From: Anaerohalosphaeraceae bacterium
GTDB lineage: Bacteria > Planctomycetota > Phycisphaerae > Sedimentisphaerales > Anaerohalosphaeraceae
Direction of reading: 5' to 3'
Assembly (NCBI GenBank): GCA_050309605.1
Contig: JBNRMN010000082.1
Coordinates: 1-64,000 of the forward strand
DNA length: 64,000 nucleotides
Part shown: positions 7,943-11,924 of the stretch, one piece after another
How positions within the stretch are numbered: the first letter of the stretch is position 1
Layout: the number at the start of each line of letters is the position of its first letter
Notes under the pieces: model-generated
What the model was told of the DNA's origin: nothing
Seen by the model: only the letters and a program-made list of their open reading frames with translations
The model's database searches: none
Translations under genes and position numbers: made by a program

Positions 7943-10828
7943 GTGAGACAATGGCGGTTTGAAATTACCCCCAAAACGGGGTTTAACGATGTGCACGGCA
8001 CGGCGGTGCTGGAGGATATTGGCCAGCTTGGAATAGCGTCCGTCGAGGCTGCCCAGTCGGCGCGGGTGTATCTGATCGAAGCGGATTTTGACGAGGCGTT
8101 TGCCGAGCGGGTCGCGCGGGAACTGTTGACCGATCCGGTCTGTCAGACGTATTACATCGGGCGTCAGGAGGTTCCGGACGATGAGCGTCCGATGACACTG
8201 GTGGAGGTGCACTTAAAAAGCGGCGTAACCGATCCGGTGGCCGAGTCGGTTCGGGCGGCGCTGAAGGATATGGGCGCCGGTGCGGTCGAATCGGTGCGTA
8301 CGGCACGCCGATTTGTGCTGTTCGGGTCACTGACGCCGGAGCAGCGGGATATGATTGTCCGCCGTGTGTTGGCCAATGACTGCATCGAAGAGGTCATTTA
8401 CGGCGCCGACGCCGAGCCGCCCAGTCCGCATACCCGGCCGTATGAGCTTAATCTGATTGAAATTCCCATCCGCGATCTGAATGATGCGGCGCTGGTCAAC
8501 CTAAGCAAAGAGAAAGATTTGTTCCTGAATCTGCGTGAGATGCAGACGATTCGGGACTATTATCGCACAGTCGGACGCGAGCCGACGGACGTGGAACTGG
8601 AGACACTGGCCCAGACCTGGAGCGAGCACTGCGTCCATAAGACCCTCAAGAGCAGTGTGGATATGGATTTGGACGGCCAGTCTGTTCACTTTGACAATCT
8701 GCTCAAGGAGACGGTCTTTAAGGCCACCAAAGATCTGAATCAAGACTGGTGTATTTCGGTTTTTGTTGACAATGCCGGCGTAATTGAATTCGATCAGGAC
8801 GCGGCCCTTTGTTTCAAGGTCGAGACCCACAATCGTCCTTCGGCCCTGGATCCGTACGGCGGGGCGGCCACCGGCATCGGCGGGGTCATCCGCGATTCGA
8901 TGGGCACGGGGCTGGGGGCCAAACCCATCGCCAACACCGATGTGTTCTGCTTTGGACGGCCGGATATGAAGATACAAGACGTGCCCAAGGGTGTACTTCA
9001 TCCGCGGCGTGTGATGAAGGGGGTCGTTGCCGGCGTGCGCGATTACGGCAACCGAATGGGGATTCCGACAGTCAACGGGGCGATTTTTTTTGATGACCGC
9101 TATCTGGCCAATCCGCTGGTATTTTGCGGCAGTATCGGGACACTGCCGCGAGATAAATGTTTCAAGAAGGCCCGCAGCGGCGATCTTATCGTGGTGGTCG
9201 GCGGGCGAACCGGACGCGACGGCATTCACGGGGCGACCTTTTCCAGCGGTGAGATTACCCACGAACACGAGACGATCTTTTCACACGCCGTGCAGATCGG
9301 CAATGCCATTACGGAAAAAAAGATGCTTGATACGCTCCTGCAGGCACGCGATGCCGGCCTGTATGAGGCTGTTACCGACTGTGGAGCGGGCGGGCTGAGC
9401 AGCGCCGTCGGCGAGATGGGGGCCGACTTGGGCGCTGAGGTCGATCTGGAGAAAGTGCCGCTCAAATATATGGGCCTGTCTTATACCGAAATCTGGATAA
9501 GCGAGGCCCAGGAGCGAATGGTGCTGGCGGTCAGTCCGGAGAAAGTGGATGCGATCTTGGCGATTTTTTCCGCCGAGGATGTGGAGGCGACCGTGATCGG
9601 GCGGTTTACCGACGATAAGAAGCTGACGCTTCGTTATAATAATGTGCAGGTCGGTCAGTTGGATATGGATTTTCTGCACGAGGGGATTTGCAAGTATCAG
9701 CGCAAGGCCGTGTGGTACAGCCGACCGGCCGCGGAGCCGACGCCGACGCCCAAAGATCATTACAACGACGATCTGTTGAGACTGCTCGGTTCTTATAATA
9801 TTGCGTCCAAAGAATGGGTCATTCGACAATACGACCATGAAGTGCAGGGCGCCAGCGTCATTAAGCCTCTCGGCGGCATCGCCAATGATGGACCGATGGA
9901 TGCGGCGGTGCTGCGGCCGAAATTTGACAGCGACAAGGGCTTTGCCGTCGCCTGCGGGATGAATCCATGTTACGGCGATATCGATCCGTATTGGATGGCG
10001 CTGGCGGGAATTGACGAGGCGGTTCGCAATCTGATCTGTGTCGGCGCGCGGTTTGATCGGATTGCCTTGCTGGATAATTTCTGCTGGGGCGACTGCAATG
10101 ACCCCGAAACGCTCGGTGCGCTGGTTAGGGCTTGTCAGGCCTGTTACGACGGCGCGGTGGGTTACGGCACGCCGTTTATTTCCGGCAAGGATTCACTGAA
10201 CAACGCCTTTGTTGCTGATGACGGCCGGCGTGTTTCGATTCCGCATACGCTGTTGATCAGTGCAATCGGGCTGGTGGAGGATGTCCATCGCTGTGTAACG
10301 ATGGATGTCAAGGAGGCGGGCAATCTGCTGTTTGTTGTGGGATTGACGAAAAACGAACTGGGCGGCTCGCATTATTATCGCCTGTTCAATCAGCTTGGCT
10401 CGAGCGTGCCGAAAGTCGATATCAAGACCGCTGCGGAAACGGCCCGACGCATCAGCGCAGCGATCGACAAAGGCCTGGTTCGATCCTGCCATGACTGTTC
10501 GGAAGGCGGGCTGGCTGTGGCGCTGGCGGAGATGGCGTTTGCCGGCGGGCTGGGGATTGAGGCTGACCTGCGCGGTTTGCCGACGGCACCGGACTGTGTG
10601 CGCACCGAAGCGCAGCTCTTTAGCGAATCCAACGCCCGCTATGTCGTGGAGGTCACGCCGGATAACTTCCATGCGTTTGCCGAATTGTTGCTGAATCTGC
10701 CGTTCGGCCGGATCGGCGGCGTGGTCGAGGACAAACGCCTTAAGATTCTTGACCGACAGCAAAAAACGGTCATTGACCAGCCCCTTGACGTGCTCAAAGC
10801 AGCCTGGCAAAAACCCCTCTCCTGGTGA
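7943..10828 (+). CDS. purL: Phosphoribosylformylglycinamidine synthase subunit PurL with N-terminal PurS-like region
   Basis: WSEHCVHKT, KVETHN, GAATGIGGVIRD, DCGAGGL, SEAQERM, QYDHEVQG, ISGKDS, HDCSEGG. Confidence 0.97.
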   Translation: MRQWRFEITPKTGFNDVHGTAVLEDIGQLGIASVEAAQSARVYLIEADFDEAFAERVARELLTDPVCQTYYIGRQEVPDDERPMTLVEVHLKSGVTDPVAESVRAALKDMGAGAVESVRTARRFVLFGSLTPEQRDMIVRRVLANDCIEEVIYGADAEPPSPHTRPYELNLIEIPIRDLNDAALVNLSKEKDLFLNLREMQTIRDYYRTVGREPTDVELETLAQTWSEHCVHKTLKSSVDMDLDGQSVHFDNLLKETVFKATKDLNQDWCISVFVDNAGVIEFDQDAALCFKVETHNRPSALDPYGGAATGIGGVIRDSMGTGLGAKPIANTDVFCFGRPDMKIQDVPKGVLHPRRVMKGVVAGVRDYGNRMGIPTVNGAIFFDDRYLANPLVFCGSIGTLPRDKCFKKARSGDLIVVVGGRTGRDGIHGATFSSGEITHEHETIFSHAVQIGNAITEKKMLDTLLQARDAGLYEAVTDCGAGGLSSAVGEMGADLGAEVDLEKVPLKYMGLSYTEIWISEAQERMVLAVSPEKVDAILAIFSAEDVEATVIGRFTDDKKLTLRYNNVQVGQLDMDFLHEGICKYQRKAVWYSRPAAEPTPTPKDHYNDDLLRLLGSYNIASKEWVIRQYDHEVQGASVIKPLGGIANDGPMDAAVLRPKFDSDKGFAVACGMNPCYGDIDPYWMALAGIDEAVRNLICVGARFDRIALLDNFCWGDCNDPETLGALVRACQACYDGAVGYGTPFISGKDSLNNAFVADDGRRVSIPHTLLISAIGLVEDVHRCVTMDVKEAGNLLFVVGLTKNELGGSHYYRLFNQLGSSVPKVDIKTAAETARRISAAIDKGLVRSCHDCSEGGLAVALAEMAFAGGLGIEADLRGLPTAPDCVRTEAQLFSESNARYVVEVTPDNFHAFAELLLNLPFGRIGGVVEDKRLKILDRQQKTVIDQPLDVLKAAWQKPLSW

Positions 10829-10836
10829 AACGATTT

Positions 10837-11099
10837 AACCACGGAGGACACGAAGAGCACGAAGGTTTAATAATGGTAAAGCAAAATGAATTCAGCGAGT
10901 TGTCCGGACGGGTCATTGGTTGTGCCATCGAGGTGCATAGGACGCTGGGGCCGGGTTTGCTGGAGTCGGCTTATCGGCAGTGCCTTTGTCATGAATTACG
11001 ATTGAACGAGATACGATTCGAAGTTGAAAAATGGACTGAAAAGTTTTGTGCTGTAAACAACCAAAAGAAACCTTCGTGAACTTTGTGTTCTTCGTGGTT
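10837..11099. mobile_element. Inverted-repeat-bounded GxxExxY cassette inserted between purL and purQ
   Basis: 32-bp arms at 10837-10868 and 11068-11099 (27/32 complementary, plus 3 G-U wobbles) enclosing a GxxExxY gene remnant. Confidence 0.6.
10873..11056 (+). pseudogene. GxxExxY protein (PD-(D/E)xK nuclease-like), internally deleted
   Basis: N-terminus VIGCAIEVHRTLGPGLLESAYRQCLCHEL..FEVEK is joined out of frame to the family-type C-terminus LKNGLKSFVL* (TAA 11054-11056); the central core is missing. Confidence 0.85.
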
Positions 11100-11123
11100 T
11101 GGTTTTATTGTTAGGGATTGTGA

Positions 11124-11924
11124 ATGAACAACGTAAAAGCAATTGTATTACGGGCGGCGGGGATTAACTGCGACCTGGAGACCGAACACGCCCTGCGGCT
11201 GGCAGGTGCCGAAGCGGAGCGAATTCATATGAACCGGATCATGGCCGAGCCGTCTCTGCTGGACGGCGTACAGATTCTGGTCTTTCCCGGCGGGTTCAGC
11301 TACGGCGACGATGTGGCGGCGGGCAAGATTCTGGCCAATCAGGTCGTGCATCATCTCAGCGACCTGCTGCACCGGTTTGTTGAGCAGGGCAAACTGATTC
11401 TCGGCATCTGCAACGGGTTTCAGGTGCTGATAAAAACCGGTCTGACACCGGCGCTGAACAACGACGCACAAACGTCCGCGGCCGATTATCCGGCGACGCT
11501 GACGGATAATGACAGCGGACGATTTGAAGACCGCTGGGTCTATTTGCAGCCCGGCACCGAGCGCTGCGTGTTTATCGAATCGGAACGGCGGATTTATCTG
11601 CCGATCGCACACGGCGAGGGCAAGGTCGTCGTCCGTGATGCGGCCACGCTGGCACGGTTGCGCGACGAAGGCTACGTGGCGTTTCGCTATGTCGATGCCG
11701 AAGGTCGCCGCGGTCCGTTTCCGGTCAATCCCAATGGCTCGCAGGACGATATCGCTGCGCTGACCGATTCGACCGGGCGTGTGTTGGGGATGATGCCGCA
11801 TCCGGAACGGTTTGTCCGGCTGACGCAGCATCCGCACTGGACGCGGCTGAAAGAACGTGAAGGATTCGGCGACGGCATGACGATTTTCAATAACGCCGTC
11901 AGATATATTCGTGAACATTTTTAA
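11124..11924 (+). CDS. purQ: Phosphoribosylformylglycinamidine synthase glutaminase subunit
   Basis: GINCD, PGGFSYGD, LGICNGFQ, AHGEG, NPNGS, GMMPHPER. Confidence 0.97.
   Translation: MNNVKAIVLRAAGINCDLETEHALRLAGAEAERIHMNRIMAEPSLLDGVQILVFPGGFSYGDDVAAGKILANQVVHHLSDLLHRFVEQGKLILGICNGFQVLIKTGLTPALNNDAQTSAADYPATLTDNDSGRFEDRWVYLQPGTERCVFIESERRIYLPIAHGEGKVVVRDAATLARLRDEGYVAFRYVDAEGRRGPFPVNPNGSQDDIAALTDSTGRVLGMMPHPERFVRLTQHPHWTRLKEREGFGDGMTIFNNAVRYIREHF

Follow-up and report, generated by a model that had tools for sequence, protein, structure and literature searches.

An inverted-repeat element enclosing a truncated GxxExxY gene between purL and purQ, read as a decayed member of a mobile cassette family

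The window, the whole stretch of 64,000 nucleotides of an Anaerohalosphaeraceae bacterium that was analysed here, carries a compact inverted-repeat element between purL and purQ. This element is best read, from sequence comparison, as a decayed member of a mobile cassette family with likeness both to REP/RAYT systems and to the intervening sequences (IVS) of 23S rRNA. On this reading, the window carries a selfish "word-arm" cassette that was passed down vertically and died through an internal deletion. New in this study are the allelic series at the purL-purQ junction, a negative test for wobble pairing, a contrast between word cores and spacers, and a change of word between orthologous arms.

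The purL-purQ locus is a single unit between housekeeping genes and has the following features:

7943 to 10828, plus strand: purL, the upstream host gene, 961 aa with a PurS-like N-terminal region
10837 to 10868, plus strand: left arm, an inverted repeat of three 9-nt units
10873 to 11079, plus strand: truncated, frameshifted GxxExxY (PD-(D/E)xK, PF13366) pseudogene with a 68-aa ORF
11029 to 11032 (approximate), plus strand: deletion junction, with 200 nt absent relative to the full-length ortholog of a relative, G003 (DNA alignment, gap columns 237-436)
11054 to 11056, plus strand: ancestral TAA stop of the GxxExxY gene, now out of frame, located by alignment with the relatives G003 and G004
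11068 to 11099, plus strand: right arm, three 9-nt units in inverted complementarity to the left arm
11124 to 11924, plus strand: purQ, the downstream host gene (TIGR01737, 190 bits; cut-off 177.8)

The purL call is based on TIGR01736 (635.9 bits; cut-off 525.75); residues 4-75 and 87-150 are covered by PurS models, and the stop codon occupies 10826-10828. A first-pass annotation had described arms of three tandem 9-mers each, set 8 nt behind the purL stop and 24 nt ahead of the purQ start, and this layout was confirmed from the sequence. A repeat search together with direct reading also bore out its pairing count: the two 32-nt arms are complementary at 27 of 32 positions (84%) with 199 nt between them. 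The five non-Watson-Crick positions are three G:T on the plus strand, one A:A and one G:A, and 30 of the 32 positions are able to pair in plus-strand RNA. Each 9-nt unit contains a 7-nt core. The cores are purine-rich in the left arm (CACGGAG, CACGAAG, CACGAAG) and pyrimidine-rich in the right arm (CTTCGTG, CTTTGTG, CTTCGTG). By eye, a Shine-Dalgarno-like GAAGG lies in the last left-arm unit, about 5 nt upstream of the ATG of the enclosed gene. The spacers between the units differ between the left and the right arm, and each arm's spacers resemble another arm subfamily resident in the genome.

The arms were scored by strand-symmetric local alignment of the upstream sequence with the reverse-complemented downstream sequence. 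The score at purL-purQ was 39, compared with a mean of 15.6 and a maximum of 24 in 100 dinucleotide shuffles, which excludes a chance origin. The window has 4 occurrences of a two-unit word pattern where 0.40 would be expected, and no shuffle out of 100 gave as many as 4. As an RNA duplex the arms are calculated at -47.2 kcal/mol on the plus strand versus -35.1 on the minus strand, and as single-stranded DNA at -28.5 versus -22.3 kcal/mol. The entire 301-nt element folds to -99.3 kcal/mol (z -4.66) on the plus strand, with both arms paired in the minimum free energy structure, and to -65.6 kcal/mol (z -2.85) on the minus strand.

No direct repeats flanking the arms were seen by eye in the window copy or in the inspected gene-less copies, the empty sites being too diverged to align. 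A transposition intermediate was likewise not seen. Rfam models returned only three chance-level matches between 10500 and 11500, to eukaryotic or archaeal snoRNA and lncRNA families (E 6-7), and no terminator-like site was called on the plus strand between 10500 and 11400. An intrinsic terminator, defined by a short GC-rich stem, a loop of 3-8 nt and a U tract, was rejected for this element with its 199-nt loop. A T-rich stretch lies after the right arm, and a promoter scan placed one weak promoter-like site within the left arm. A coding role of the arms, as HEG-type tripeptide repeats in frame with an ORF from the GTG at 10825, was rejected because the period is 8 nt in many relatives. The same truncated allele is present in a DNA contig of a public sequencing run (X8), with 3 differences over 10300-11579.

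The enclosed ORF scores 52 bits against TIGR04256 (cut-off 35; profile positions 2-45 of 116) and 49.4 bits against PF13366 (cut-off 22; positions 2-46 of 117), and its translation carries the GxxExxY motif as GLLESAY. The family assignment of the first-pass annotation thus stands with both models above cut-off, but the gene is not complete: homology is limited to the N-terminal 53 residues or so, and the catalytic core is lost. In an alignment of 72 relatives, E30, Y33, D70, E80 and G107 are invariant and K82 is nearly so. D70, E80 and K82 all fall within the 200-nt deletion, with which the D...ExK core is gone from the window copy. As 200 is no multiple of 3, the deletion also shifts the frame, and the open frame now terminates at a TGA within the right arm. 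The window copy is, by its sequence, a dead and truncated pseudogene, and it is this internal deletion that makes the cassette a dead one.

What the intact protein may look like was assessed with the full-length G003 ortholog. Its structure model (pLDDT 95.3) found its best fold matches in the Cas4 protein SSO0001, lambda exonuclease, a restriction-endonuclease-like protein and Hjc, with a Foldseek E of 2e-3 and a VIA Z of 7.6. The model thus shows a PD-(D/E)xK fold, with scores that assign no subfamily. A search of solved structures with a 3-sequence profile gave nothing relevant (best E 0.58). PF13366 is entered as "Unknown" in a 2012 survey of PD-(D/E)xK enzymes (PMC3424549). A literature search found no activity, binding or specificity for a GxxExxY protein; nor did it find a description of GxxExxY genes within repeat arms, subscription journals and supplements lying outside that search.

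The history of the element was traced by taking the purL-purQ spacers from 20 genomes, this genome (G000) and 19 relatives. Among members of the same genus, G003 has a complete cassette with a 126-aa gene, G004 a cassette with a 141-nt in-frame deletion (79 aa), and G000 the 200-nt frameshifting deletion. G001 retains the last 60 nt or so of the gene together with a right arm in degraded form, the 75-nt spacer of G002 is free of the cassette, and in G006 the junction is occupied by another gene-less hairpin made of another word. In 14 genomes of other genera, plain spacers of 24-71 nt were found in 10 and other inserts in 3, while G018, from another genus of the same family, has a relic consisting of the left arm, a C-terminal motif fragment and one right-arm unit. 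The sequence immediately outside the arms is conserved across G000, G003, G004 and G001, and the divergence from G003 over the N-terminal 53 residues of the enclosed ORF is similar to that of the flanking genes. These two observations argue for one old, vertically inherited and independently decaying insertion, in which, by this comparison, the arms have outlived the gene twice. The first-pass annotation had supposed a compact mobile or intervening element and looked for an empty site in relatives; the empty, full, deleted and relic states agree with that view, with G002 and the 10 plain spacers of other genera as the empty ones. Presence/absence polymorphism at one site, which serves as a criterion for homing endonuclease genes, was thereby found at purL-purQ.

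The same series bears on the idea that the element is a host regulatory structure, a terminator, attenuator or mRNA stabiliser that tunes purQ relative to purL and contains an ORF only by accident. The position within the operon and the T-rich stretch after the right arm would suit such a role. However, a plain spacer serves in 10 of the 14 genomes from other genera, the plus strand has no called terminator-like site and the loop measures 199 nt. Elements of this type also lie at ruvA-ruvB, after gatA and at ribE-pdxA and occur across phyla, and the interior is recognisable as a decayed nuclease gene. We therefore consider a regulatory structure highly improbable.

To place the decayed cassette in its family, GxxExxY loci were collected in a scan with one genome per species. 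The scan gave 79 loci that encode relatives, from Planctomycetota, Kiritimatiellota, Lentisphaerota, Acidobacteriota, Bacteroidota, Chloroflexota, Pseudomonadota, Methanotrichaceae and others, and 75 of them had sufficient flanking sequence to be analysed. With fixed windows reaching 150 nt from the gene, and mostly in draft bins, 49 of the 75 loci had arms with a score of 26 or more, compared with 0 of 150 dinucleotide shuffles. Six further loci reach 26 when 500-nt windows are used, the shuffle null covering the 150-nt windows. A cross-locus null was dropped in favour of the shuffles, since unrelated loci share arm words (maximum score 58). The expectation that such arms would surround other GxxExxY genes was thus borne out in many phyla as well as at two further loci of this genome, C21 and C59. 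The words found in the sample were CACGAAG, CACGGAG, CACAGAG, CGCAGAG, CGCGGAG and CATGAAG, with a period of 8-9 nt.

In 45 of the 49 cassettes it is the upstream arm that is purine-rich, and a median of 11 nt separates its end from the start codon. As called by a longest-ORF heuristic, on which these orientation and gap counts depend, the cassette gene shares its orientation with the upstream neighbour in 37 of 41 cases and with the downstream one in 30 of 39, and all three genes agree in 25 of 33; the gap between upstream stop and left arm has a median of 13 nt, that between right arm and downstream start one of 20 nt. The baselines for co-orientation, 0.7 for the same strand and a second of 0.49, are rules of thumb rather than computed values. 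The arm word follows the clade of the GxxExxY protein, with for example one cross-phylum clade in CACGAAG arms (in a poorly resolved tree, with 6 of 69 branches starred), a match that could be explained by shared descent alone.

The 49 cassettes allowed the pairing of the arms to be examined as a family trait. The first-pass annotation had read the three G:T mismatches as a sign of selection on a folded strand and had predicted a strand bias in a larger sample. In a strand-symmetric alignment of the arms, with the gene's sense strand as reference for classing mismatches, G:U-type mismatches numbered 32 in the sense and 30 in the antisense direction (p = 0.90), compared with 69 of the transversion type; inside the word cores the numbers were 12 and 9. 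The predicted bias is therefore absent, and the three-of-three pattern of the window copy is not a property of the family. Duplex energies agreed, the sense strand being favoured at 21 loci and the antisense strand at 18, with 10 equal (Wilcoxon p = 0.62). A sense-strand advantage consequently holds for the window copy (-47.2 versus -35.1 kcal/mol) but fails as a family trait, and with it the argument for a selected folded strand.

Mismatches are instead distributed according to the word. The arms differ at 43 of 910 core positions (4.7%), at 66 of 160 positions of the 2-nt spacers (41%) and at 29 of 296 positions outside the arrays (9.8%). Complementarity between the arms is thus largely that of a conserved 7-nt word in inverted arrays, which suits a sequence-specific site better than pairing selection by itself, and the word could be a protein or recombination site.

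These results weigh on a second alternative, an IVS-like RNA element in which the arms exist for their double-stranded stem and RNase III excises the cargo RNA, separating or stabilising the flanking cistrons. Such an element would profit from the 30/32 sense-strand stem at purL-purQ with its calculated energies (arms -47.2 kcal/mol; z -4.66 over the full element), from the co-oriented, stop-to-start packing of the cassettes and from the upstream position of the purine-rich arm in 45 of 49. The genome does encode RNase III, and the 23S IVS of Coxiella is, as described (PMC4990558), a stem-bounded selfish insert with a decaying ORF that RNase III excises. On the other side, neither an excess of sense wobble (32 versus 30; cores 12 versus 9) nor of sense stability (21, 18 and 10 loci) was found, and spacers mismatched at 41% beside cores at 4.7% are not what pairing selection alone predicts. 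Clear RNA coverage of the region came from run X20 only, over 10300-10510 and thus outside the element, run X14 being probably DNA. The spread to new junctions and the genome-wide change of word would also be left unexplained. An RNA element of this kind is thus unlikely, although the geometry of a gene looped out of the operon mRNA fits the co-orientation with both neighbours and the filling of the gap from stop to start.

The decayed-cassette reading draws further on the rest of this genome. CACGAAG-type arrays are present at about 12 loci, and the pattern has 26 matches compared with 4 for the reversed control. Most of these loci are gene-less hairpins of 70-90 nt, of which there are at least 7, and all are intergenic. 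The sole GxxExxY gene with CACGAAG arms is the dead one at purL-purQ. The genome's two intact GxxExxY genes also lie within inverted, periodic arms, of other words, one at the ruvA-ruvB junction with 43-nt arms of CACAGATTTT-type units (C21) and one downstream of gatA with CACAGAG units (C59). The same kind of arm also surrounds a 183-aa HNH protein (C90; PF01844, E 5.5e-7), a HicB/HicA pair (C67) and an unassigned 76-aa ORF (in a second compartment of C59). A RAYT system was rejected for this genome: its two Y1 genes (PF01797; C63:13043 and C90:77804) have no word pairs within 700 nt.

A comparison of orthologous arms pointed to a change of word within the old insertion. In G003 and G004 all six units of the purL-purQ cassette are CATGAAG or its complement, and the surviving units of the G018 relic are likewise CATGAAG, whereas the arms in G000 and the G001 relic are of the CACGAAG type. 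Genome-wide, CATGAAG-type and CACGAAG-type matches number 91 and 38 in G003, 0 and 27 in G006, and 5 and 26 in G000. CATGAAG is probably the older state, since CATGAAG arms accompany the genes of those proteins that are closest to the G003 ortholog, and the arms in the window have probably been aligned to the word resident in their genome. The word change and the mixed spacers would reflect ectopic conversion, or an exchange among arms dispersed in the genome, although the concerted change could alternatively come from replacement of the cassette as a whole.

At other junctions the cassettes differ between sister species. The C21-type cassette stands at ruvA-ruvB in G000 and is decayed at the same junction in G002; in G001 this junction holds a different GxxExxY cassette with ACAGGAT-type words, and in G003 and G004 another word hairpin, which is gene-less. 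G003 has a C21-type cassette between a ribE-like gene and pdxA, 74% identical over arms and gene; there the stop codon is immediately followed by the left arm, and 4 nt separate the right arm from the ATG. The ribE-pdxA junction of G000 is a plain 72-nt spacer. The compared sequences thus show that cassettes come and go at gene junctions, and that one type occupies different junctions in sister species.

At the level of whole genomes, 41 relatives were sorted by the presence of GxxExxY genes and of three-word arrays. Both were present in 26, the gene alone in 6, the arrays alone in 2 and neither in 7, the two array-only genomes being 73% and 83% complete; the reversed control of the pattern had 0 matches in every one of the 41. 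The link between gene and array (Fisher p = 0.002, Spearman 0.49) is inflated by kinship in both statistics, and the significance is overstated because the relatives are not independent.

The inventory of words and cargoes also suits a third alternative, in which the arms are generic brackets, akin to MITEs or recombination sites, that an unrelated trans-acting enzyme or recombination of the host between dispersed arms would move, and GxxExxY, HNH and HicAB genes are exchangeable passengers, such as defence or addiction genes, that contribute nothing to mobility. Unrelated cargo types in the same kind of arm within one genome agree with it, as do gene-less hairpins outnumbering genes, the patchwork of spacers in the two arms of the window copy, which looks like ectopic exchange, and the GxxExxY cassette with another word at ruvA-ruvB of G001. 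Yet both Y1 genes lack flanking arrays and no candidate enzyme was identified; no arrays were found in 7 of the 9 relatives without GxxExxY genes, and the arm word tracks the GxxExxY clade, though shared descent could yield the latter. We consider brackets moved by such an enzyme or by the host improbable.

In the preferred reading, that of a mobile cassette family with a decayed member at purL-purQ, a complete cassette would be a promoterless small gene, usually a minimal GxxExxY PD-(D/E)xK nuclease, enclosed by inverted arrays of a 7-nt word (CRYRRAG type, period 8-9 nt) and fitted precisely into the gap between a stop codon and the next gene's start, in the orientation of both neighbours. 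The arms may act chiefly on DNA, as sites for recognition, recombination or gene conversion, and the nuclease of the cassette would be the best trans-acting candidate by analogy with REP/RAYT or homing systems. We give an even chance to the view that the word arrays serve at the DNA level for recognition or recombination and that the nuclease of the cassette is probably the factor acting on them in trans. The cargo gene decays by internal deletion while the arms persist, and the gene-less hairpins may be deletion products or non-autonomous copies. When transcribed in the host operon, the arms would form an RNA stem of about 30 bp that brings the upstream stop and the downstream start together and hides the ribosome-binding site of the cargo. 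We propose that an insertion is tolerated because the stem joins stop to start and masks this site, and that copies in operons retain both arms because the stem renders them harmless. In the window copy nothing enzymatic is left, just the passive stem.

Several observations touch on this division of roles. Co-orientation and stop-to-start packing suit an RNA role at least as well as a DNA-level one. Counter to a nuclease-driven view, six relatives have the gene and no array of the three-word pattern, and in two with arrays no gene was found; moreover, the only CACGAAG-armed gene of this genome is dead, yet at least 7 CACGAAG hairpins exist. Because the same arms enclose HNH, HicAB and the 76-aa ORF, the nuclease may be a passenger rather than a driver. 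A more far-reaching proposal makes the GxxExxY proteins the enzymes of a large cross-phylum hairpin-cassette system, the PD-(D/E)xK equivalent of REP/RAYT, that read word arrays, spread cassettes and rewrite the word genome-wide; it is a possibility we hold only tentatively. Genome-wide concerted rewriting would then account for CATGAAG in two species where CACGAAG is found here. In the same tentative proposal, the nuclease would recognise arrays of its own word, probably as a hairpin or cruciform, and set off copying of the cassette into junctions or into gene-less hairpins.

The purL-purQ locus shows with unusual clarity the history of one cassette, with insertion into an operon junction, vertical descent, independent deletions of the core, persisting arms and a change of word. 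The analysis further ties GxxExxY/PF13366, a very widespread family, to dispersed hairpins built of words, which in many phyla occupy the gaps between genes. Removal of the wobble argument for a purely RNA-level role points toward DNA recognition by the nuclease. If the nuclease is indeed word-specific, the cassettes would represent a selfish element of a new kind, from which programmable recognition of short DNA words might be derived.

Among known systems, free-standing homing endonuclease genes belong to families that include PD-(D/E)xK and HNH, lie between genes, vary in presence and decay after fixation. The cassettes are like them in having a small nuclease gene between genes, variable presence at one site and decay. 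They differ in that the arms enclose the gene and exist without it, and in that unrelated junctions rather than one cognate site are occupied; we know of no case in which a GxxExxY cassette nuclease cleaves an empty allele. Integron gene cassettes are promoterless, co-oriented single-gene units whose attC site is a recombination substrate as a folded single strand. The element shares with them the promoterless, co-oriented single-gene unit and imperfect inverted repeats, but its repeats bracket the gene rather than trail it, its arms are built of words and the cassettes form no array.

Correia elements of Neisseria are inverted-repeat-bounded, intergenic and co-transcribed, with hairpins that can be bound or cut by RNase III (PMC2649163). 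Like these elements and MITEs, the cassettes are small, bounded by inverted repeats, intergenic and variable in presence, which in Neisseria is a variation between strains (PMC2649163). Unlike Correia elements, which have no coding capacity, the cassette carries a gene, and it has another arm architecture and a far wider phyletic spread; unlike MITEs, no target duplication is seen by eye around the arms.

REP and REPIN sequences are dispersed extragenic inverted-repeat doublets that can form hairpins, a few copies of which flank an enzyme gene, the RAYT (PMC3116915). The gene associated with the word arms is, unlike the Y1 HUH transposase RAYT, a nuclease of about 125 aa with a PD-(D/E)xK fold, sometimes an HNH protein. 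The arms are periodic in their words, unlike REP/REPIN, and the cassette shares its neighbours' orientation and fits tightly between their stop and start codons. The likeness lies in the dispersed extragenic hairpin doublets, here at least 7 gene-less CACGAAG hairpins that are all intergenic, and in a repeat that differs by group or genome and travels with the gene, as described for REP/RAYT (PMC3116915).

The comparison with the 23S rRNA IVS is similarly two-sided. Whereas an IVS lies in helix 45 of 23S rRNA, the element studied here lies between protein genes of an mRNA operon; its cargo is a PD-(D/E)xK nuclease instead of the four-helix bundle S23p, its arms are tandem arrays of a 7-nt word, and the statistics reveal no selection on sense-strand pairing. 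Both are compact inserts with complementary ends that form a stem and with a small, decaying ORF (PMC4990558). The Coxiella burnetii 23S IVS with its S23p gene was horizontally acquired and then vertically inherited, with a reductive ORF, and was deemed selfish (PMC4990558).

Besides GxxExxY genes, arms of this kind also carry a second nuclease family, because an HNH-domain gene lies within CACAGAG arms in G000, the genome of the window. This gene and two further cargo loci of G000 are as follows.

G000:C90:7620-8232 (outside the window), HNH-domain gene (PF01844), 183 aa, inside three-unit CACAGAG arms
G000:C67:168052-168670, HicB-like antitoxin gene and HicA-like gene between an arm and a hairpin
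G000:C59:18046-18850, cassette of two compartments, one with a GxxExxY gene

Both neighbours of the HNH gene are co-oriented with it, at gaps of 28 and 38 nt. The HicB- and HicA-like genes, the latter apparently frame-broken, are bordered on one side by a single CTTCGTG-type arm and on the other by a complete CACGGAG/CTTTGTG hairpin. The two-compartment cassette runs from an arm through the GxxExxY gene, a second same-sense arm copy and a 76-aa ORF, which matched no Pfam family, to an inverted arm.

At the window locus, an open frame (10825-11079) runs from a GTG at 10825, which overlaps the purL stop, via the left arm into the GxxExxY ORF. The arm translates in this frame to H-E-G-type tripeptides; the 9-nt period probably keeps the frame open incidentally. 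PurS models match the purL ORF (961 aa; window 7943-10828) at residues 4-75 and 87-150, which points to an apparent fusion of PurS to the PurL N-terminus, possibly in two copies. In the same-genus relative G001, the GxxExxY ORF at ruvA-ruvB (L142, G001:C74:10900-11600) seems extended C-terminally by read-on into its own right arm; the arms there consist of ACAGGAT-type words with a period of roughly 10-11 nt.

One subfamily of CACGAAG hairpins is multi-copy in G000 (C1:54134, C24:4632, C33:112930, C52:3487, C66:27828 and C96:67106). About 35 nt on either side of the hairpin are conserved across copies, and the two flanks also form an inverted repeat with each other; the repeated unit therefore extends beyond the hairpin, as a palindrome of some 150-190 nt. 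In another genome, G024, nine or more CACAGAG-type units follow one another in tandem with a 9-nt period (C53:8992-9070), an array that far exceeds the usual three-unit arm in length.

Different hairpin families appear to reuse the same gene gaps. Gene-less elements of other AT-rich words (ATCAAAA/TTTTGAT; ATGTAAA) occupy three spacers in same-genus relatives.

L031, purL-purQ spacer of G006
L140, ruvA-ruvB spacer of G003
L141, ruvA-ruvB spacer of G004

The same junctions hold GxxExxY cassettes in sister species.
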